From assembly GCA_965262505.1 (NCBI GenBank), contig CBDHFM010000030.1, forward strand, positions 1,803,244 through 1,867,243: a stretch of DNA of 64,000 nt, written 5' to 3'. Shown here in pieces: positions 14,013 through 60,807 of this stretch. Each line of letters opens with the position of its first letter. Position 1 is the first letter of the stretch. Both the position numbers and the translations under genes were made by a program. The notes beneath the pieces are model-generated. The model was not told the origin of the DNA, made no database searches, and saw only the letters and a program-made list of their open reading frames with translations. The DNA comes from Vicinamibacterales bacterium (GTDB taxonomy: Bacteria > Acidobacteriota > Vicinamibacteria > Vicinamibacterales > UBA2999).

Positions 14013-15440
14013 TACTACTTTGTCAGATTGACGAATTGCCGAGTGGATTCGAGAGTGATCACTTTTGAGGGCATTGTACAAATTCCGCGAGTTCGATACG
14101 CTGCCGTGCGGTGCTCGATCACACCGCGACCGCGTGGCTCCGTCGGTTGCTGGCCTGGCTGGAGCCGTTCGAGGCCGGCTTCGGGCGCGCCAGTCAACGC
14201 GGCGCGTTGCGGCGCTACGTCGCCGGGTTGCTCAACGACAGTTGCCGCAAGTCCATGGAGGCGATGTGGGCGCGGTTGAGCGACCCCGGGACCTATCAGG
14301 CGTTCCAGCACTTCATCACGCATGCGCCGTGGGACGCCGAGACGGTGTGGAAGCAGCTGCGGGCGCGGGTCCCGGAGCGGACCGGCGTGTTGATCCTCGA
14401 CGGCACCAGTTTTCCCAAGCAAGGGACCGCGTCGGTCGGCGTGGCGCGGCAATACTGCGGGGCACGCGGGAAAATCGCGAACTGCCAAACGGCCGTCACG
14501 GTGGCCCTGTGGACGGGGACGCGCGCCTGGATGCTGGGCGCGCAGCTCTATCTGCCGGAGACGTGGCTCACCGCTGCCCAACGGACCCGCGCCCGCATTC
14601 CCGCCGGCGTGCGCTTTCAGCCCAAGTGGCAATTGGCCCTCACGCTGCTGCGACAAGTACGCGCCGCGGGCGTGACGGTGACCGCCGTGTTGGGGGATGC
14701 CGAGTTCGGCGACAACGCCACGCTGCGGCGAACGCTGCATCGGGCCAAACTGTCCTACGCGTTGGGGGTGTCGTCCGATCTCAAGGTCTTCCGTGGAACG
14801 CCGGCCCTCGAGACGCCGCCGCCGCCGACGGGCCGCGGCCGTCCGCGCACGCGGCACGGCCTACCGGTCGGTACACAGACCGTCGAAGCGCGGGCCTGGG
14901 CCGCCACGCAAGCGCCTCGCCAGTGGCGGCTCGTGTCGTGGCGCAACGGCACGCATCCCCCGTGGCGCGCCCGCTTCTGTGCCGTACGGGTCACGCCCGC
15001 CCACGACTGGCGCGAGGGCCGACGGCTCGCCCCCGAGGTGTGGTTGTTGTGTCAACGCGACCTCGGCGCAACGCCTGTCACCAAGTACTACTTGGTCGAT
15101 CTGCCCGCCACCACCGCGCTGCGCGGCCTCGTGCGCCTCGCGCATCAGCGCTGGGCGATCGAGCAGCAATACCAGGAGCTCAAGGACGAGATTGGGCTCG
15201 ACCACTTCGAAGGCCGCAGCCTGCCGGGCTGGCAACGTCACGTGGCGCTGACCGCCCTCGCCTACAGCTTTCTCCAGATGGAACGCCGCCGACGGGGACA
15301 GAAGACACATCTCACGCTGCCGCGCGTCCGCGCCATCATCCAGGAAGTGCTGACCGCCCATTTCTTCATGACGCAACCGCACTACCTGAAGTGGATGCTC
15401 AAGCTCAAAGACGTCAAACTGCAAATCTGACAAAGTAGTA
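14013..15440 (+). mobile_element. IS701-family element
   Basis: Perfect 17-bp TIR TACTACTTTGTCAGATT flanked by CTAG duplication (14009-12, 15441-44); transposase 14111..15430 with ILDGTSFPKQG..SVGVARQYCG, GDAEFG and RWAIEQQYQELK..GLDHFEGR. Confidence 0.95.
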
Positions 15441-18082: not shown

Positions 18083-18810
18083 CGCCCAAGATCCGCCTCG
18101 ATCAGCTGGTCGCCGACAAGGGGCTCGCTCCCTCGCGCGAACGTGCGCGCGCCTTGATCATGGCCGCCCAGGTCAGCGTCGATGGGCGGGTGATCGGCAA
18201 GGCGGGCACCCAGGTCGAATCCGACGCCGATGTCGCCCTGCTTGGGCCCGATCATCCGTACGTCGGCCGCGGTGGCCTCAAGCTGGCGCACGCGCTCGAT
18301 ACGTTCGGGATCACCGTCGCCGGACGCGAGGCGCTCGACATCGGCGCGTCGACCGGCGGGTTCACCGACGTGCTCCTGCAGCGAGGCGCCCCACGCGTCG
18401 TGGCGCTCGACGTCGGCCACGGCCAGTTGGCCTGGAAGCTGCGCAGCGACCCGCGTGTCGTGATCATCGAGCACTTCAACGCGCGGCGCCTCACCCTGGC
18501 CGACCTACCGGGACCGGTGGATATCGCGTGCATCGACGTGTCGTTCATCTCGCTGCGGCAGATCCTCCCGGTGGTTCCGCCGCTTCTTCGTCCCGACGCG
18601 GACGTGGTCGTGCTCGTCAAGCCGCAGTTCGAGGCCGGCCGCGCGGAAGCAGGCAAGGGCGTGATCCACGATGCGGCGATCCATGCGCGCGTGGTCGAAG
18701 AGATTCGCGTCGCGGCCGCTGCGGTAGGATTAACCAGAGCAGCGTCGACGCCCTCGCCGGTTACCGGCCAGAAGGGTAACGTCGAGTTCCTCCTCCATCT
18801 GCGCTCATGA
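18079..18810 (+). CDS. tlyA: TlyA-family rRNA methyltransferase
   Basis: S4 domain RLDQLVADKGLAPSRERA, YVGRGGLKL, DIGASTGGFTD, DVSFISL and VKPQFEAG; TTG start overlaps the ispA stop. Confidence 0.95.
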   Translation: MTPKIRLDQLVADKGLAPSRERARALIMAAQVSVDGRVIGKAGTQVESDADVALLGPDHPYVGRGGLKLAHALDTFGITVAGREALDIGASTGGFTDVLLQRGAPRVVALDVGHGQLAWKLRSDPRVVIIEHFNARRLTLADLPGPVDIACIDVSFISLRQILPVVPPLLRPDADVVVLVKPQFEAGRAEAGKGVIHDAAIHARVVEEIRVAAAAVGLTRAASTPSPVTGQKGNVEFLLHLRS

Positions 18811-19691
18811 CAGTCCACCGCGTCGGCATCGTTGCAAAGCAGGGCCTCGTGGCCGCATCCGAACACCTGTCGCGACTCGGCCCGTGGCTGCGGGAGCGCG
18901 GCATCGAGGCCCTGTACGAGTGCGACACCGCGAAGCTGGCGGGCGGCGCCGCGCATGGGGCGACGACGATGACGCGGGAGGTGCTGCCGCGCAAGGTCGA
19001 CCTCGTGATCGTGCTCGGCGGTGACGGCACCCTGCTCGCCATGGCCGCCCGGATCGCCCAGTCGGGCCGTGACGTCCCGATTCTCGGCGTGAACTTCGGC
19101 AGCCTGGGATTCCTGACCGAGATTCGCATCGACGAGCTGACGTCGTCACTGGAAGGCGTCCTGGACGGCACGGCGTCGATTGACGAGCGCGCCATGCTCA
19201 CGGCCGACGCCTACCGGAAGGGCCAGCAGGTGGACTCGCGCATCGTGCTGAACGACGTCGTGTTCACGAAGGCGGCGCTCTCCCGCATGATTGAACTGTC
19301 TGTCTCGGTCAGCGGAGAGTTCGTGACGCGCGTGAAAGCCGACGGGCTGATCATCGCAAGTGCCACCGGCTCCACCGCCTACAACCTCGCGGCCGGGGGG
19401 CCCATCGTGCACCCGATGGTGGACGCGCTCGTGCTGACGCCCATCGCGCCGCATACCCTCACGAACCGCCCGGTCGTGATTCCCGGCAGCGCCGAGGTCG
19501 AGGTCCACGCGCACGCGAACGGTTCGCCCGGCGATATTTTCGTGACCTGCGACGGTCAATCGGGCTACCCGCTGCACGAAGGCGACATCGTCCAGGTACG
19601 GAAGTCCGAACGCCTTCTGCGCCTGGTGAAAGCCCCCGCGCGCGGCTACTTCGAAGTCCTGAGAGAAAAGCTGAAGTGGGGAGAACGTTGA
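18807..19691 (+). CDS. nadK: NAD kinase
   Basis: LGGDGTLL, GVNFGSLGFL, LNDVV, DGLIIASATGSTAYNLAAGGP. Confidence 0.97.
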   Translation: MTVHRVGIVAKQGLVAASEHLSRLGPWLRERGIEALYECDTAKLAGGAAHGATTMTREVLPRKVDLVIVLGGDGTLLAMAARIAQSGRDVPILGVNFGSLGFLTEIRIDELTSSLEGVLDGTASIDERAMLTADAYRKGQQVDSRIVLNDVVFTKAALSRMIELSVSVSGEFVTRVKADGLIIASATGSTAYNLAAGGPIVHPMVDALVLTPIAPHTLTNRPVVIPGSAEVEVHAHANGSPGDIFVTCDGQSGYPLHEGDIVQVRKSERLLRLVKAPARGYFEVLREKLKWGER

Positions 19692-19736: not shown

Positions 19737-20513
19737 ATGAACCTTGAGTTCGGAGCCGCGACTGACCAGGGGCGCGTACGGGCGCAGAACGAGGACAGCT
19801 TCGTCGCCGATGGGGACTTCGGCTTCTTTGCCGTCGTTGACGGCATGGGCGGGCACGTCGGCGGTGCGCTAGCGTCCGCCACGATCGCGGAGGCGGCCAC
19901 GGCGTTCATCCGGGAAACGGCTGCGGATTCGGACAAGACCTGGCCCATCGGCCTCGATCCCAATCTGTCTGGACTGGGGAATCGCCTCCAGGTAGCGGTT
20001 CGCAGCGCCAACCAGACGCTTGGGAGGCGCGCCAAGGGGAATACGGACCTTGAAGGCGGTGGCGCCACGCTGGCGGCGGCGCTCTTCGGCGACGACAAAC
20101 TCGCTGTGTCCAATGTTGGTGATTGTCGGGCGTATCTGCTGCGCGGAGGCCGCCTCACACAGCTCACGCGCGATCATTCCGTGGTGGCCGAACAGGTCGA
20201 GCAGGGACTGATTGATGCGGAGACCGCCCGCACGCATCCGCTTCGCCACATCGTGACCAGAGCCGTCTCCGGCCAGGCCGGGATGACGGTCGACACGCTC
20301 GAGATGGGGGTCGAGCCCCGTGACCGGCTGATCCTGTGCTCGGACGGCATTCACGGCGTTCTGACCGACAGCGAACTCACGGCGCTCGTCTCGCCGAATG
20401 GACAGTCCCTCGACACAGCCTGCCGCACCGTCATCGACGAAGCGAACGCCCGTGGCGGCCCAGACAACGCAACCGCGATTGTGGTCGAGGTTGTTGAGCG
20501 CGATGCGTCCTAG
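19737..20513 (+). CDS. PP2C-type Ser/Thr protein phosphatase
   Basis: GRVRAQNEDS, VDGMGGH, NVGDCRAY, LTRDHS, LCSDG and GGPDNAT. Confidence 0.95.
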   Translation: MNLEFGAATDQGRVRAQNEDSFVADGDFGFFAVVDGMGGHVGGALASATIAEAATAFIRETAADSDKTWPIGLDPNLSGLGNRLQVAVRSANQTLGRRAKGNTDLEGGGATLAAALFGDDKLAVSNVGDCRAYLLRGGRLTQLTRDHSVVAEQVEQGLIDAETARTHPLRHIVTRAVSGQAGMTVDTLEMGVEPRDRLILCSDGIHGVLTDSELTALVSPNGQSLDTACRTVIDEANARGGPDNATAIVVEVVERDAS

Positions 20514-20535
20514 CTAATTCCCGATACAAAGCTTC

Positions 20536-23175
20536 GTGGCTAGCATCCCTTCGCGAATCGGGAACTTCGAGGTCCTCAGCCAGATCGGGTCTGGGGGGAT
20601 GGGCGCGGTCTATCTCGGCCGCGATCCGGAGTTAGGCCGCCAGGTAGCGATCAAGGTGATTCGCGAGGAGGTCCGAGACCAGGAAGTTCTTGAGCGGTTC
20701 TTCCGCGAGGCTCGAGCGGCCGCCGCGCTGCGTCACCCGAACATCATCACCGTCTACGCCAGCGGCCAGCACGAGCACCAGCCGTACATGGTCATGGAGT
20801 ACGTCGAGGGCGATTCGCTGGGGGACATCATCCGGACGCGGCGGACCCTGACCCTGGCCGACAAGATCTCGTACATCGAACAGATCTGCGCCGGCCTCCA
20901 CTTCGCCCATCGCGCGGGGATCGTCCACCGGGACGTCAAACCGGCCAACATCATGGTCGATCAGGAAGGCGTTGTTCGGATTCTCGACTTCGGCATCGCC
21001 CGCGTCGAAGGGTCCGCGATGACGCAGGACGGCTCATTGATGGGATCGCTGAACTACATGTCCCCGGAGCAGATGCTCGGACACCCGATCGATCATCGGA
21101 GCGATATTTTTTCGGTTGGCTCGGTGGCCTACGAGTTGCTGTGCTACCAGCAGGCGTTCAAGGGGGGGCTCACTGACGGACTCCTGCAGCGGCTGCCGCA
21201 CGAGGACCCGCCCCTATTGGCCCAGCTCTATCCCGGGTTGCCGCCCGCGCTCGATCGGGCCGTCATGCGGGCCCTGGAGAAGGAGCCGGACAAGCGGTTT
21301 CAGGATTTGGCGGAAATGCGCAGCGCGATCGTCGGTGGCGGCGCTGGCGGGCACGCCGATCCGCAGCCTGAGGATGACCGCACTATGGTGATTCCGCGGC
21401 CGGGAGCACCGCAACCTGAGCAGGCCATCAACCTCGTCACCGGCCCGGAGCGATTCGCCCAGACAACGGCCGCGCCTGCGCCGCACCTTCCTGCTCCCGA
21501 CCCGACTTCTGCCCCTGCTCTTACTCCCGCGCCGCCCCCGCAGGCGCTGCAACTGAAGAAGGAGGCCGCAGGCAGCGGGAGACCTCTCTCGGGCGGCGAG
21601 AAACCCGCCGCCCCGTCCGTGCCGCCGCGCGCGGCCGTCGTCGGGCCGCCGCCACCGCAGACAGCGCCGCGCGCGTCTTCTCGGAAACGGACCATGGTTA
21701 TTGGCTCCGCTGTGGGCGCCCTGGTTCTCGTCGCGGCAATCGCAATCATTGGGCGGCCTCCGCCGCCGAGCGATCTGGAACGGGAGCGCCCTGGAATCGA
21801 GGAGACCATGGGACGTTTTCGGGTCGCCTATCGGAACCGGAACCTGGAGGGCGTGATGGGCGTGTTTCCGACGCTGCCGGGCGAGACCAGGCAGGCGATG
21901 CAGCGCTCGTTCGACGACTGTCTCGTCTACGAAGTGACGTTCGCCGATATGCAGGTGGAGTTGGATCCGACCGACGCCACACTAAAGCGCTTTTCAAATA
22001 GGCCTTGTACTACCTGGGGCGGTCGTGGTACTTCTGCGCGCACCGATGCAGGAGGCCCGATGCGTGCCTATTCGATGGATCTGCGAGAGCGGGCGCTCCT
22101 CGACAGCGATGCCGGGATGACGGCGGCCGAGGTGGCGGCGAAGTACCGCGTGAGCGGGTCGTGGGTGCGGCTACTGAAACAGCGGCGGCGCGACACGGGC
22201 GAGGTGGCGCCTCGCGTCCAGCGACATGGACGGCGCGGCATGCTTGAGCCGCACCTACACACCTTGGCCGCGCTGATTGCGGCGCACCCGGATCGCACGC
22301 TGGCTGAGCTGAAGGACGCCCTCGCCACGCCCGCGAGTGTGCCGACGGTCTGGCGCGCCGTGCGGGCCCTCGGCCTGACCGTTAAAAAACACGGTCCGCC
22401 CGTCCGAACACGATCGGCCTGACGTCGCGGCCGCGCGGGTCGCGTGGCACGCGGCGGCGCCGACCTGGGATGTCGCCCACCTCGTGTTTCTGGACGAAAC
22501 CGGCATCACCACCAATCTGCTTCGGCGGTACGGCCGGGCACCGCGCGGCGCGCGCGTCCACGACCACGCCCCCTGCGGGCGCTGGCAGACCAGCACGTTT
22601 CTCGCCGCGTTGCGGGTCACGGGGCTGACCGCACCGGGGGTCTTCGACGGCGCGATCGATGGCGAGAGCTTCCGCGCCTACATCGAACAGATCCTGGTGC
22701 CGACCCTGCAGCCCGGCGACATCGTCATTGCCGACAATCTCGGGGCCCACAAGGTCGCCGGCATCCAACGCGCCATCCAGGCCGCCGGGGCCACCCTCTG
22801 GTACTTGCCACCCTACAGCCCGGACCTCAATCCCATCGAGCTCTGCTTCGCGAAGCTCAAGGCCCTCGTTCGCACCGCTCGCTGTCGCAGCACCGAGACG
22901 CTCTGGCCGTTCCTCGGCGAGTGCTTGGCGCACTTCAGCCCTGACGAATGCCGCAACTATGTTCGGCACTGCGGGTACGCGGCCGCCACACGGTCATGAA
23001 AAGCGCTTTAGCCCAGGTCGATGTCAGCAGCACGCATATCTGCACGCCGAACTCCGGAGGCCTACAAATCACGACCGCTCAGCGCGACGTCTTTACCCTG
23101 CGCAGGAGCGGCGACGGCTGGCTCATCGACAGCAGCGTCCAGGCGCCCGACGCGTCAGCCGACCGGACGCAGTAG
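20536..23175 (+). pseudogene. Membrane Ser/Thr protein kinase interrupted by IS630 copy 2 in its extracytoplasmic domain
   Basis: GSGGMGAVY, VAIK, HRDVKPAN, DFG and YMSPE motifs, Pro-rich linker, TM helix; removing 21985..23010 restores DPTDATL-AQVDVSS...RTQ* in frame. Confidence 0.9.
21985..23008 (+). mobile_element. IS630-family element, copy 2 (1024 bp)
   Basis: Same TIRs and TA duplication in CTAG; orfA 22060..22422, orfB to 22999. Confidence 0.95.
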
Positions 23176-24652
23176 GTCCGCCTTCACCGGCACGGCCTCC
23201 CGCTCCTGACGGAGCGCAGAGAACTCCTCCTCGACCGCATCAAACAGCTCGACCGCGGCCGGATCGAACTGCGCGCCGCTGTCGGCCCGTAGGCGTCGCG
23301 CGGCCTCCTCCTCCGGCAGTGCCTCCCGGTAGGGGCGTGCCGAGGTCATCGCATCGTAGCTGTCGGCCACCGCCATGATCCGCGCGTGCGGATGGATATC
23401 GGTGCCACCCAGCCGATCCGGATACCCCTTGCCGTCCCACCGCTCGTGATGGCCGCGCACCGCCGGGAGCGAGGCGCCCAGAAACGGCAGCGGCAGGAGC
23501 ATGTTGTACCCGATGGTGACGTGCGCCTCGATTAACGCGCGCTCGCGTGCGTCGAGACTACCCGGCTTCAACAAATACGGCGTCAGGCACACCGACCTTG
23601 CCGATGTCGTGCAGCAGGCCCCCGCGCCGGAGGGTTTCGACATCAGCTGCGTATTTGCCGCTCTGGCGTGCGAGCACGAGCGTATACGTGGTCACGCGCG
23701 CTGAATGCCCGGCCGTATACGGATCGCGTGCGTCGATCGCCTTGGCGAACGCCTCGAGCGTGGCGCGGAAGTGGCGCTCGCGATCGTCGTACAACTGGGC
23801 CGTCTCCAGCGCGGCCGCCGCGTGACCGGCGAACGCGGCTGCGTACTCCGCGAGATCGGGAGCGAACTGCTCCAAGCCGAGCTTGTCAGCGTAAAGGGCG
23901 CCAATCGGGCCCGACCGGCCGAGGAGCGGCACGCAAATGACCGAGCGTACGCCGGCAACCAGCACGCTGGCCGCGTGCTGCAGCCGCGGATCCAACCGAA
24001 CGTCATGGACAATGAACACATCGCGCGCTTCCATCGCCTGACTCACGACGGTCGAACTGGCAAACTCAGACACCGACGAGTACGCGCCAGAGGGGCGAAC
24101 CGCCCGCGGGACCATCGCGCCCGTTTCGGCGTCGACCAGGAGAATCGCGGCGCGGTCGGGTTTGACGATGGACGACAGACGGTCGAGGACGCGTTCGAGG
24201 AGCACCGGCAGGTCTTCGAACGCCATCATCTCCCGGCTGGTAGCGAGCAGCACTTCCAGCGCAAGCTTGTCGACTTTCGGCGCCTCGCTCATCGCCAGCC
24301 GCCGCAGGACTGTCTGCGACACGACGGGCGCCTCCTCCACGGGCGTCGTCTCGTCGTCGCTACCAACGACGTATTCGACCCGCCCGAAGCTCACAGTGTC
24401 GCCCAGCGTGAGGTATGCGCTCAGCTGTTCGGCGCCGTTGACGAAAATGCCGTTTGTACTCCCGAGGTCGTCGATGCTGAGCTGCCCGTCCTGGTCCACG
24501 GCAATGCGTGCGTGCAGGCGCGACAAACTCGTGTCGTCCACTATCACGTCCGCCTTGCGTCCGCGCCCGACGGTCTTTGACTGGCCGACGTCCAGCCTGA
24601 TGGCGGGCGTGTTCGGCGCGGGAACCTTGGGGTTGAGGCGAAGCCCTGTCAT
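23155..24652 (-). pseudogene. FHA-GAF-HD-GYP phosphodiesterase with a +1 frameshift near 23574 (real or sequencing error)
   Basis: FHA (VGRG, SRLHA, GSTNG), GAF (VICVPL) and HD-GYP (LHDIGK, HHERWDGKGYP, ADSYDAM..RPYR); removing one T from GTATTTGTTG gives VPDAVLLKPG. Confidence 0.88.
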
Positions 24653-24706
24653 GGCCGCAGCCAATATACCTTGAGCAGCCGTCGGATAGAGGCGTAGGTC
24701 ATGGGT

Positions 24707-25729
24707 CTACCGGCGGAAGTACAGGACCTGGAACTCCCGGACGTTGCGATTGTGCTCGGCGAGGGTGCTGGCAAAGGCGTGGGTGCCGTCATTTCGGCTC
24801 ACGAAATAAAGGTAGCCGTCTTGAGAGGGCGTGAGCGCCGCTTCCAGCGACGCCGCTCCTGGCGCGGCAATGGGCCCCGGTGGTAGGCCGGCGTACCGAT
24901 AGGTGTTATACGGGGAGTCGAGCGCCAGATCGTCGCGGCGGATATTGCCGGTGTAGGTGCCCGCCTGGCGCAGGGCGTACACAACCGTCGGGTCGGCCTG
25001 GAGCCGCATGCCGATTCTCAGGCGGTTTCGGTACACGGCGGCGACGATCGGCCGCTCCTCGGGCGTTCCTGTCTCTTCTTCGACGAGTGACGCGAGCGTC
25101 ACCACCTGTCGCATGGTCAGCCCTTGCTCCTCCGCGGCGTGGCGCCACTGGTCTGTATAGATCGCTAGAAAGCGATCGACCATCATGCCGACCAGGCGAG
25201 ACGCCGGGACCGCGCGCGGAAGCGCGTACGTCTCCGGGAAGAGGTACCCTTCGAGATCGACGGCCTGCGCGTCCAGGGCCTGCATGGGCGACGGGTTCGT
25301 GGCGGCTTCGATGAAGTCTGCCGCGGCCCCAAACCCGCGGGACTCGTAAATCCCCGCCATCTCCTGGATCGTGAGCCCTTCCGGAAACGTGATCCTGCGC
25401 GTGTACACGTCTCCCCGCGCGATCCGCTCCACAACGTCGACGGCAGCCAGCGGACGATCGAAGCGGTACTCACCGGCCTGGAGGTCGAGCGCCCGCCCCG
25501 TCCACCAGAGGGCAGCCCTGAACGCGATCTCGTCGCGGATGATGCCGGCGTCCACGAGACGTCGCCGGATGGCCGCGGTTCCCGTGCCCGGCGCGATCAC
25601 AACGAACTGCTCCGCGCCCTCATACCCCTTATACGGGTCGTACAGGCGGCCCCGCAGCGTCATGCCGGCGAATACTGCGCCCACGACGACGACTGCCAGC
25701 GCGATGGCGATAGTGACGTTGCGCATCAC
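24707..25729 (-). CDS. mltG: Endolytic transglycosylase MltG
   Basis: AGEY, ITFPEG, EGYLFPETY, LASLVEEE, LQADPT, SPYNTY..GLPPGPI and YLYFVS. Confidence 0.95.
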   Translation of the reverse strand: MMRNVTIAIALAVVVVGAVFAGMTLRGRLYDPYKGYEGAEQFVVIAPGTGTAAIRRRLVDAGIIRDEIAFRAALWWTGRALDLQAGEYRFDRPLAAVDVVERIARGDVYTRRITFPEGLTIQEMAGIYESRGFGAAADFIEAATNPSPMQALDAQAVDLEGYLFPETYALPRAVPASRLVGMMVDRFLAIYTDQWRHAAEEQGLTMRQVVTLASLVEEETGTPEERPIVAAVYRNRLRIGMRLQADPTVVYALRQAGTYTGNIRRDDLALDSPYNTYRYAGLPPGPIAAPGAASLEAALTPSQDGYLYFVSRNDGTHAFASTLAEHNRNVREFQVLYFRR

Positions 25730-26214: not shown

Positions 26215-27347
26215 ATGACTCCTCGTGCCATCTCGTGCGTCATGGTCGCCGCTCTCAGCGCCGGGCTCGCTGCCCAGACGGTTGACCGCGGCCGTACGGA
26301 AGCCGAAGCGCGTCGAGTCAACGATCGCGCCCGCGCCCTTCAAAGCGAGGCGGATGGCCTGGCCGGCCAGGCACGTACGCTGCTTGGCGACCTCCGAGAA
26401 CTCGAGATCGACCGTGAGCTCCAGATCGAACGGGTACGGCAAGCGGAGGCGGCCGTCGCGCAGGGCCAGGCCGCCGTCGCGAACACCTTCGAACGGCTGG
26501 CGTCGCTCGAAGAGGAGCGCGCCGCCCAACTCCCGGACTTGCAGACGCAACTCGTGGATATCTACAAGCAGGGACGAGCCGGCTACCTCAGATTGTTGTT
26601 CGGGGGGAGCGGCGCCCGCGAGTTCGGCCGCGCGAGTCGGGCTGTCTCGGCGCTGATGAACATCAACCGGCAGCGCATCGCCGAGCACCGCCAGACCCTC
26701 GAGGCGGTACAGCTGGAACGCGAGCGGCTCGACGCCGAGATCCCCGCGCTGCAGGCCAGTGTCGCGGAGGCGCGGCAAGCGCAGGCCGCTGCCGATCGCG
26801 CGCTCGCGGCGCGCTCGTCGCGCAGATCGACGCGCGCCGGGATCTCAACGCCCAGCTCGCGGGCGAGCTGCAAATCGCGTACGAGCAGCTGCAACAGCAG
26901 GTGGCGAACATCGCGGCAGGCCGCCCGGCCGAGTCGGTGGAGGTGCCACTGGCGCCCTTCCGTGGTGCACTCGACTGGCCGGTTGCAGGCCGGATGACGG
27001 TGCTGTTCGGGCAGCCATCCGGGCGCCTGGACAACTCGGCGGCCAGAAACGGGGTCGAAATCGCGGCCCTCGAGGGCAGCGCCGTACACGCGATCCATTC
27101 GGGGACGGTGTCGTTCGCCGATTCCTTCACCGGCTTCGGCAACCTTGTCATCATTGACCACGGCGCCAACGCGTATTCACTGTATGGCTACCTGGGTGCG
27201 GTGTCGGTGGCCCGCGGTGACGCGGTCGACAGCGGGACCGAGATTGCGCGCGTCGGGGCGGCGCCCGTGGGGCCGGCCGCCCTCTACCTGGAAATTCGCG
27301 TCGACGGCCGTTCAGTCGATCCCGTAAAATGGCTGGAGCCGCGCTGA
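26215..27347 (+). pseudogene. envC: EnvC-like murein hydrolase activator (coiled coil + M23 domain) with a frameshift near 26811
   Basis: Signal peptide and coiled coil in one frame; WPVAG, NGVEI, GNLVIIDHG and LYLEIR in another; frames switch inside GCGCGCTCG repeats. Confidence 0.8.
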
Positions 27348-59783: not shown

Positions 59784-60807
59784 AAGCGCTTTTCATGACC
59801 GTGTGGCGGCCGCGTACCCGCAGTGCCGAACATAGTTGCGGCATTCGTCAGGGCTGAAGTGCGCCAAGCACTCGCCGAGGAACGGCCAGAGCGTCTCGGT
59901 GCTGCGACAGCGAGCGGTGCGAACGAGGGCCTTGAGCTTCGCGAAGCAGAGCTCGATGGGATTGAGGTCCGGGCTGTAGGGTGGCAAGTACCAGAGGGTG
60001 GCCCCGGCGGCCTGGATGGCGCGTTGGATGCCGGCGACCTTGTGGGCCCCGAGATTGTCGGCAATGACGATGTCGCCGGGCTGCAGGGTCGGCACCAGGA
60101 TCTGTTCGATGTAGGCGCGGAAGCTCTCGCCATCGATCGCGCCGTCGAAGACCCCCGGTGCGGTCAGCCCCGTGACCCGCAACGCGGCGAGCAACGTGCT
60201 GGTCTGCCAGCGCCCGCAGGGGGCGTGGTCGTGGACGCGCGCGCCGCGCGGTGCCCGGCCGTACCGCCGAAGCAGATTGGTGGTGATGCCGGTTTCGTCC
60301 AGAAACACGAGGTGGGCGACATCCCAGGTCGGCGCCGCCGCGTGCCACGCGACCCGCGCGGCCGCGACGTCAGGCCGATCGTGTTCGGACGGGCGGACCG
60401 TGTTTTTTAACGGTCAGGCCGAGGGCCCGCACGGCGCGCCAGACCGTCGGCACACTCGCGGGCGTGGCGAGGGCGTCCTTCAGCTCAGCCAGCGTGCGAT
60501 CCGGGTGCGCCGCAATCAGCGCGGCCAAGGTGTGTAGGTGCGGCTCAAGCATGCAGCGCCGTCCATGTCGCTGGACGCGAGGCGCCACCTCGCCCGTGTC
60601 GCGCCGCCGCTGTTTCAGTAGCCGCACCCACGACCCGCTCACGCGGTACTTCGCCGCCACCTCGGCCGCCGTCATCCCGGCATCGCTGTCGAGGAGCGCC
60701 CGCTCTCGCAGATCCATCGAATAGGCACGCATCGGGCCTCCTGCATCGGTGCGCGCAGAAGTACCACGACCGCCCCAGGTAGTACAAGGCCTATTTGAAA
60801 AGCGCTT
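59784..60807 (-). mobile_element. IS630-family element, copy 3 (1024 bp)
   Basis: Same TIRs and TA duplication in CTAG; differs from the other copies by only a few substitutions (e.g. RRCML, STLL). Confidence 0.95.

Follow-up and report, generated by a model that had tools for sequence, protein, structure and literature searches.

Can a membrane-bound Ser/Thr kinase be wired to the breakdown of a bacterial cyclic-dinucleotide messenger through a phosphothreonine reader built into the degrading enzyme? The question is raised by three neighbouring genes in a 64,000-nucleotide stretch of DNA (the window) from contig CBDHFM010000030.1 (C30 of genome G000) of a Vicinamibacterales bacterium. They encode a PP2C-type phosphatase, a Hanks-type kinase and, convergent with these, a putative phosphodiesterase with FHA, GAF and HD-GYP domains. 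Based on conserved residues and gene neighbourhoods, we consider it probable, if well short of certain, that together they encode a cyclic-dinucleotide phosphodiesterase module under phosphothreonine control. In the window two of them are interrupted, and their parts are as follows.

19737..20513, plus strand: PP2C-type Ser/Thr phosphatase, 258 amino acids (aa), intact; nadK ends 45 bp upstream, and the kinase gene starts 22 bp downstream.
20536..21984, plus strand: 5' part of the Hanks-type Ser/Thr kinase gene, codons 1-483 (Pkinase PF00069, E=1.2e-52).
23011..23175, plus strand: 3' remainder of the kinase gene, 54 codons and a stop (23173-23175), encoding the last strands of the predicted NTF2-like domain and aligning with orthologue C-termini.
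23558..24664, minus strand: N-terminal piece of the FHA-GAF-HD-GYP gene, with a likely start at ATG 24652 and a premature stop at 23558-23560.
23155..23574 (open frame from 23643), minus strand: C-terminal piece of the same gene, in another frame (HD_5, E=5e-27, profile positions 66-169 of 170).

The phosphatase passes the curated cut-offs of both PP2C profiles (PF00481, E=4.5e-14, 53.2 bits against a cut-off of 20.3; PF13672 PP2C_2, E=3.3e-12, 46.8 bits against 24), and its orthologues at the same place are 63-73% identical. The 5' part of the kinase gene covers the kinase domain, a Pro/Ala/Thr-rich linker, a single membrane helix and, of an extracytoplasmic domain, the initial two thirds. 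Its translation has the G-loop, VAIK, HRDxKxxN, DFG and SPE motifs of Hanks-type kinases, and K40, D133, K135, N138, D151-F152-G153 and S176-P177-E178 are invariant in the kinase alignment A2 (six orthologues). Pfam and these invariant catalytic residues thus bear out the phosphatase and membrane kinase named in the original prediction, which had been made from the sequence of this locus. The outer domain of the kinase has no significant Pfam match, the nearest being SnoaL_2 at E=0.07 in one orthologue. The fold predicted for an orthologue's outer domain (mean pLDDT, the predicted local distance difference test score, of 81.6, and more than 90 within the domain, with an input alignment of five sequences only) is a three-helix, four-strand cone. 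Its best Foldseek matches among solved structures are NTF2-like, with E-values of 2.5e-6 and below, and comprise proteins of the ketosteroid-isomerase-like kind as well as CaMKII hub domains. On this predicted fold, the sensor domain is NTF2-like.

The N-terminal piece of the phosphodiesterase matches FHA (E=8.1e-16), GAF_2 (E=2.2e-11) and HD (E=1.1e-7), and ends after the first half of the HD/HD_5 profiles. Across the two pieces we could read GHS, HDIGK, EAH, HHERWDGKGYP and ADSYDA, the motifs of an HD-GYP domain (PF13487 HD_5). The FHA domain belongs to PF00498 both by profile and by its phosphothreonine-contact residues, at the level of sequence: all six (G33-R34, S48..H51, N71-G72) are invariant in 51 orthologues (alignment A3), and among 29 diverse sequences G33, R34, S48, H51 and N71 are invariant and G72 is at least 90% conserved. 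Its structural matches are the FHA domains of OdhI, GarA and DgcB at E 1e-7 to 2e-6, with GarA and OdhI the nearest. The metal-binding and GYP residues of the HD-GYP domain are conserved in the same 51 orthologues (A3) and, by way of the intact allele, aligned with those of the solved structures 4mcw and 5z7c. That the protein keeps both its phosphothreonine-binding residues and its HD-GYP catalytic motifs, as had been claimed, is therefore confirmed by these alignments.

If the kinase and the enzyme work together, they should be found together, and conserved linkage in other genomes was looked for as a test. Orthologues of the window phosphodiesterase, 56-80% identical, are here called group A; group B stands for the many clusters of the same architecture from Acidobacteriota, Planctomycetota and Hydrogenedentota that are 25-37% identical. 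Group A is one clade with 100/100 support in a tree of 12 rows; the outgroup row (L103), on a very long branch, is probably a faulty extraction, which leaves the ingroup unaffected. The clade was found in 5/24 same-family genomes in a first sample and, in a second, in 4/30 of the same family, 2/30 of a second family and 0/240 in the other 17 families of the order. A metagenome scan with A3 added at least three full and at least two fragmentary orthologue loci; the fragments L129 (1.9 kb) and L130 (4.2 kb) have no kinase domain in the 1.2 and 3.6 kb downstream and, being too short, were left uncounted. The test was positive for this clade: a Ser/Thr kinase lies within 5 kb at 13/13 group-A loci with usable flanks, a count that includes the window and metagenome loci among the matches listed, and that takes L127 and L128 separately when both may be one organism. 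The partner kinases are of four unrelated types and stand in at least five arrangements.

Window, G017, G014, G021, G651 and L126: nadK-PP2C-kinase, convergent on PDE-mltG-ruvX (PDE, the phosphodiesterase gene).
G005, L127 and L128: PP2C-kinase, with extra genes between the kinase and phosphodiesterase genes.
G024: an 852-aa kinase-TPR gene overlapping the phosphodiesterase start by 4 bp, in an unrelated neighbourhood.
G644: a kinase gene 13 bp downstream of the phosphodiesterase gene, its product 75% identical to the G024 partner kinase.
G401: a convergent 605-aa kinase, in yet another context.
G437: two PD40-propeller kinases downstream of the phosphodiesterase gene, after a small aspartyl-protease-like open reading frame.

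Apart from the G024/G644 pair, the partner kinases are no more than 38% identical pairwise, a comparison that for G437 covers the 1,069-aa kinase and not the 966-aa one. In G401, G437 and G644, the best match to the window kinase is a gene other than the partner. In G024, a GGDEF gene (L017:5434-6456, plus strand) lies two genes from the kinase-phosphodiesterase pair and is a possible local source of the enzyme's substrate.

PP2C is present only in the first two arrangements, which form a sub-clade of eight tree rows with 96/98 support; in the other four (G024, G401, G437 and G644) it was not found by tblastn or by Pfam on selected open reading frames. The three-gene layout that had been proposed thus stands in part: kinase, PP2C and FHA protein are adjacent and conserved together in that one sub-clade, and elsewhere the kinase and the phosphodiesterase occur without PP2C. 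From these gene neighbourhoods, only the kinase-phosphodiesterase pair appears to be general, with PP2C confined to one sub-clade.

For the broader class of FHA-GAF-HD-GYP proteins, the expected linkage is mostly absent. Group B is kinase-linked at 2/31 loci (0/5, 0/21 and 2/5 in the separate scans, partly among the matches listed): L131 is an operon of FHA, NHL-propeller, kinase and FHA-GAF-HD-GYP genes, and L162 a row of ankyrin, phosphodiesterase and kinase genes. Distant proteins of this kind from the same phylum are unlinked, so that a neighbouring kinase does not follow from the architecture by itself. The contig scan with A1, which used a generic HD-GYP pattern, gave 79 loci among the matches listed, five with the full architecture and 74 that served as controls; a kinase lay beside 1/74 of these HD-GYP loci without FHA. 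Kinase linkage thus appears to be a property of particular clades and not of the architecture as such.

The linkage could be incidental, with the FHA domain reading the phosphothreonine of distant kinases or dimerising, and the neighbouring kinases reflecting synteny plus chance. Most of the syntenic loci do come from a single family whose housekeeping block is conserved, each genome has 19-58 Pkinase matches, and the low linkage of the distant group-B proteins agrees with such a reading. We nevertheless consider it improbable, since adjacency survives four changes of context and kinase type, and the trio behaves as an insertion-deletion block at one site. A kinase domain would fall within 3 kb of a random point with a chance of 1.7-6.2% per genome, or about 7e-8 jointly over five contexts, a rough figure, as Pkinase matches only approximate the number of genes and related genomes are not independent samples.

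The block behaviour is seen between two conserved borders.

18807..19691, plus strand: nadK, left border of the cassette site, with NAD_kinase Pfam matches.
24707..25729, minus strand: mltG (YceG, E=2.9e-86), right border, on the phosphodiesterase strand and 43-55 bp upstream of the phosphodiesterase gene.

In all five same-family genomes without the phosphodiesterase (G011, G016, G012, G002 and G023), nadK and mltG converge directly with the flanking synteny intact, and PP2C, kinase and phosphodiesterase are all absent between them (5/5). With nadK and mltG abutting in all five, the trio is gained or lost as a block. An orthologue of the window kinase (at least 56% identity, E 1e-139 or lower) occurs in 7/28 genomes searched, and these seven are exactly the same-family genomes that have the phosphodiesterase or its FHA remnant. 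The remnant is in G004, where the GAF-HD-GYP part is gone and an intact 99-aa open reading frame with the FHA domain alone stays between PP2C-kinase and mltG. Such block-wise presence and absence argues for a link from the kinase to a second messenger. The kinase-to-phosphodiesterase relay put forward in the original prediction therefore gains partial support from comparative genomics, that is, from linkage and block behaviour.

How might such a relay work? In the mechanism that we propose, the membrane kinase would be switched on through its extracytoplasmic NTF2-like sensor and would autophosphorylate on threonine. Candidate sites are T163 in the activation loop and the juxtamembrane T289, which lies in the linker within a conserved D[DE]RT[MV]V[IV]xRP motif with a hydrophobic residue at +3 (alignment A2). 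Acidic-T-x-x-[IV] strings resembling this motif are also present in disordered parts of the other partner kinases. The FHA domain of the GAF-HD-GYP enzyme would then dock on the kinase phosphothreonine, or on a threonine of the enzyme modified by the kinase, such as T118 in its linker. Docking would alter the place or activity of the enzyme and so change the level of cyclic di-GMP (c-di-GMP) or 3'3'-cGAMP (cyclic GMP-AMP), and PP2C would reset the switch.

The second docking site leads to a variant of this mechanism, an intramolecular switch of the DgcB/GarA/OdhI kind, in which the kinase phosphorylates a threonine of the enzyme and the enzyme's own FHA domain folds back to toggle the GAF-HD-GYP part. 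T118, between FHA and GAF, sits in a motif [SQE]T[IV][LMV]R that is kept in 47/51 orthologues, with Ser in two more. It is retained in three of the four deep lineages with other kinases (G024, G401 and G437; G644 has Ser) and is not conserved in the distant, mostly unlinked group B, so that it is specific to group A. The FHA matches to OdhI, GarA and DgcB also fit such a switch, and the FHA domain of DgcB binds its own phosphorylated tail, according to the passages of PMC6733907 that describe it. However, the +3 residue of T118 is Arg, where DgcB and OdhI have a hydrophobic residue, the stretch may simply be the first GAF helix, and no Thr is conserved in the short N-terminal tail, where the window has T and the orthologues have L or V. 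We therefore hold the intramolecular variant to be rather unlikely.

Returning to the proposed module as a whole, a broader reading is offered tentatively: the clade may be a portable output device, in which whichever kinase is adjacent (NTF2-like, TPR, PD40-propeller or other) would write the phosphothreonine, the enzyme would switch cyclic-dinucleotide breakdown, and T118 would serve as an internal latch like those of GarA and DgcB.

The output of the enzyme can be approached through its solved relatives. PmGH, the GAF-HD-GYP protein of Persephonella marina (4mcw), aligns over GAF and HD-GYP (query 131-484 against chain 10-366, E=9.7e-43), and V-cGAP3 of Vibrio cholerae (5z7c) matches the HD-GYP domain at E=6e-43, with HD, HHE and GYP residues common to the window enzyme. 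Both differ from it in having no FHA domain and no known kinase input. Four residues before the GH histidine, PmGH has a glutamate, which is reported to bind a third metal there, whereas the window enzyme and V-cGAP3 have a tyrosine. Since cGAMP-specific and c-di-GMP enzymes match equally well, the substrate is not readable from sequence. Genes for c-di-GMP turnover are scarce in the host genome, with about four GGDEF matches and four HD_5 loci, the window phosphodiesterase included.

It is also conceivable that the protein binds a nucleotide and does not degrade it, acting as a scaffold or sensor like mycobacterial FhaA, a phosphothreonine adaptor in cell-envelope control, co-transcribed with ruvX-mltG. 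The gene lies on the mltG strand close downstream, M23 and S41 peptidase genes are near, and only the FHA domain has been kept at this place in G004. We regard this as very unlikely: all HD-GYP metal-binding and GYP residues are conserved in the 51 orthologues, GAF-HD-GYP aligns end to end with PmGH, an active enzyme, and the gene is away from mltG in G024, G401, G437 and G644.

Several points weigh against a dedicated phosphothreonine-controlled module. The relatives compared are kin, with only about 4-5 independent contexts, and the differing kinase partners could also mean a loose, non-specific association in kinase-rich genomes. None of the 21 group-B Acidobacteriota loci is kinase-linked, and no fusion of kinase, FHA and phosphodiesterase was seen, with neither Pkinase nor FHA listed for any of 103 longer homologues, itself weak evidence. 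In G024, the orthologue of the window kinase is alone on another contig, and the phosphodiesterase there is found with a different kinase. The motifs of the candidate phosphosites are short enough to arise by chance. Finally, the best solved matches differ in substrate (cGAMP-specific against c-di-GMP) at equal E-values.

Regardless of how the module works elsewhere, the copy in the window is damaged in two of its three genes. Open reading frames, Pfam matches, inverted repeats and tblastn place the three genes and both lesions where the original prediction had put them.

23573..23575, minus strand: frameshift site in the phosphodiesterase gene, TTT on the coding strand (an AAA run) where intact relatives need TT, hence one extra T.
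21983..23010, plus strand, including the TA duplication: IS630-family insertion sequence (IS), the element itself at 21985-23008 (1,024 bp), cutting the kinase sensor domain after codon 483.
22060..22422, plus strand: N-terminal helix-turn-helix (HTH) frame of the IS transposase, with an HTH_23 match at residues 514-555 of a 628-aa open reading frame.
22484..22999, plus strand: catalytic part of the transposase (DDE_3, PF13358, E=2.7e-34), reached by a frame shift at the A6 run 22384-22389.

The phosphodiesterase frame breaks between HDIGK and EAH, inside the HD-GYP domain, with the junction placed at 23573/23574 by tblastn. Where five orthologues and P0002 read VPDAVL(L/R)K, the window reads VPDAVFVEAG and then a stop. 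P0002, which has VPDAVLLKPG here, is an intact protein of 498 aa, otherwise identical to the two pieces of the window enzyme, and the orthologues are unbroken at 498-523 aa; close homologues are labelled 'Acidobacteria bacterium' by their sources. Contigs of three other read sets cover the frameshift with 0 differences and 0 gaps (X15, 22985-24700; X17, 23446-24700; X19, 23443-23786), so that it is the strain's own and not an assembly error. In a fourth public read set, X1, contigs end at 23574 and restart at 23584; this break exactly at the frameshift makes mixed alleles in that sample possible, which contigs cannot show. A programmed frameshift was considered and rejected: the site lacks a slippery heptamer, the codon that comes next in frame is a sense codon, and relatives with an intact gene do without a shift. 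P0003, a 94% identical relative on a 1.47-Mb contig, is 376 aa long and ends a few codons beyond this LLKP stretch, after which its residues are unrelated; its truncation appears to be a second and independent break at nearly the same position.

In the uninterrupted state, the 3' ends of the kinase and phosphodiesterase genes overlap by 21 bp. The element in the kinase gene has the traits of an IS630 member: DDE_3, short terminal inverted repeats (15 nucleotides, perfect, 21982-21996 and 22997-23011), a duplicated TA at a target that reads CTAG with the IS removed, and many copies. Given that the kinase frame resumes past the IS for 54 codons matching orthologue C-termini, the part lost is the end of the extracytoplasmic domain and not the catalytic domain. 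Because the HTH frame is in the same frame as the truncated kinase, the kinase open reading frame extends to 22422; the resulting stop-free frame (20536-22422, plus strand) is a chimera of 628 aa. At IS positions 22390 and 22056 the window copy has C and the contigs of all four read sets have A; an A at 22390 makes the A6 run A7 in most copies, and the window copy may thus shift frames less well. The genome has 71 IS copies that reach 1,000 bp or more, most of them 99.4-100% identical, and flanks of the form C-TA...TA-G in 43/64 end-to-end copies, which points to a recent burst. A second IS630 copy in the window lies at 59793-60308 (minus strand), and another lies just upstream of an FHA-GAF-SpoIIE gene at L019, described below. 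With the phosphodiesterase truncated in its catalytic domain by a one-base insertion and the end of the kinase sensor lost to the IS, the module is predicted to be off in this strain.

Are the two lesions one process? It had been suggested that the module may be decaying as a unit, which would mean that this strain is discarding it under relaxed selection on the whole trio. Two of the three are damaged within 1.6 kb, and relatives have lost the whole block (the empty sites) or most of the phosphodiesterase (G004), a loss that recurs in the clade and to which the cut in P0003 may be added. However, with 71 IS copies in 7.0 Mb, a stretch of 4.9 kb would be hit at least once with a chance of about 5%, neither PP2C nor the catalytic domain of the kinase is damaged, and an intact, otherwise identical phosphodiesterase allele exists in P0002. 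One X19 contig joins 21982 to 23009, skipping 1,026 bases, with 28 letters on the shorter side and a depth of 4.3, and contigs of X19 also carry the phosphodiesterase frameshift. A site without the IS but with the frameshift would separate the two events in time, a hint that the frameshift came first and that the IS is not fixed here. In the assembled sequence, an M23 peptidase gene about 3 kb away is also frameshifted.

26215-27347, plus strand: M23 peptidase gene, split in two frames (26215-26754 and 26802-27344); its orthologues L013, L014 and L121 are single open reading frames of 379-430 aa.

Decay as a unit is thus not borne out, and we think it highly doubtful; the two lesions look like separate, recent accidents.

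The surroundings of the cassette are otherwise those of a housekeeping region, in a genome of 7.0 Mb with a chromosome of 66% G+C. On the plus strand, xseA, xseB, ispA, tlyA and nadK precede the cassette, and on the minus strand ruvX and mltG are followed by the FHA-GAF-HD-GYP gene, convergent with the kinase. A DDE_5/IS4-type transposase gene (14111-15430, plus strand, 439 aa) between ymdB and xseA is a further mobile element in this block. The apparent paralogue of the phosphodiesterase in the same genome proved to be an FHA-GAF-SpoIIE(PP2C) protein followed by a STAS-domain protein (L019:8699-10709; G000:C30:644698-646708), and hence not an HD-GYP enzyme. From its domains, this pair would be a partner-switching-type module with a phosphothreonine reader.

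From the perspective of known signalling systems, Hanks kinase, PP2C and FHA proteins encoded together are familiar, for instance, as mycobacterial PknB-PstP-FhaA/FhaB and GarA, and as PpkA-PppA-Fha1 of the type VI secretion system, whose activation through Fha and phosphothreonine is reported (PMC3953482). In these triads, the role of the FHA protein is that of an adaptor or metabolic inhibitor, whereas the FHA domain in the window is fused to a putative cyclic-dinucleotide phosphodiesterase. Input to c-di-GMP enzymes has mostly been described via two-component receivers and PAS or GAF sensors. To our knowledge, the one studied link through threonine phosphorylation, DgcB, is on the synthesis side. 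A full-text literature search that took in few subscription journals found no paper that describes an FHA-HD-GYP enzyme, or a c-di-GMP phosphodiesterase on which a Hanks kinase acts, in agreement with the earlier remark that no characterised system has this layout.

Among characterised systems, the nearest is DgcB (Bd0742) of Bdellovibrio bacteriovorus, an FHA-GGDEF cyclase whose activity is gated by the phosphopeptide-bound FHA domain, as described in the relevant passages of PMC6733907. According to these passages, the ligand is DgcB's own phosphorylated N-terminal tail, and an upstream Ser/Thr kinase is postulated that is unidentified and not adjacent (PMC6733907). Like DgcB as described there, the window enzyme has an FHA domain with consensus phosphothreonine residues fused to a c-di-GMP-type enzyme, and the DgcB structures 6hc0/6hc1 match the window FHA domain at E about 1.6e-6. 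In contrast, the output of DgcB on that account is synthesis by GGDEF with no GAF domain, whereas the window system has an HD-GYP domain for degradation, an adjacent kinase and, in one sub-clade, PP2C. The window enzyme is also not of the self-tail-gated DgcB type, given its HD-GYP output and a tail of about 15 residues without a conserved Thr; a likeness in working would be by analogy at most. FHA-GGDEF-EAL hybrid proteins listed in a genome survey of Microcystis aeruginosa (PMC7063779) likewise fuse FHA to domains of c-di-GMP turnover. They differ in having EAL and not HD-GYP and are uncharacterised, and the survey passage on them reports no kinase linkage.

Compared with these systems, the degrading enzyme here carries the phospho-reader itself, with a candidate kinase adjacent and, in one sub-clade, PP2C as well, which would make a complete and directly testable pathway. 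Natural variants provide ready controls: an intact and a frameshifted allele, an IS-cut sensor, the FHA-only stub of G004 and the empty sites. If the portable-device reading were true, eukaryote-like Ser/Thr kinases would here, for the first time, be directly wired to the degradation of a bacterial second messenger. The module is also of interest for how the Acidobacteriota signal, a soil phylum that is abundant and has been little studied. Judged by its genes, and with the copy in the window itself predicted to be inactive, the module adds a variant to the known kinase-FHA and FHA-c-di-GMP modes of signalling.

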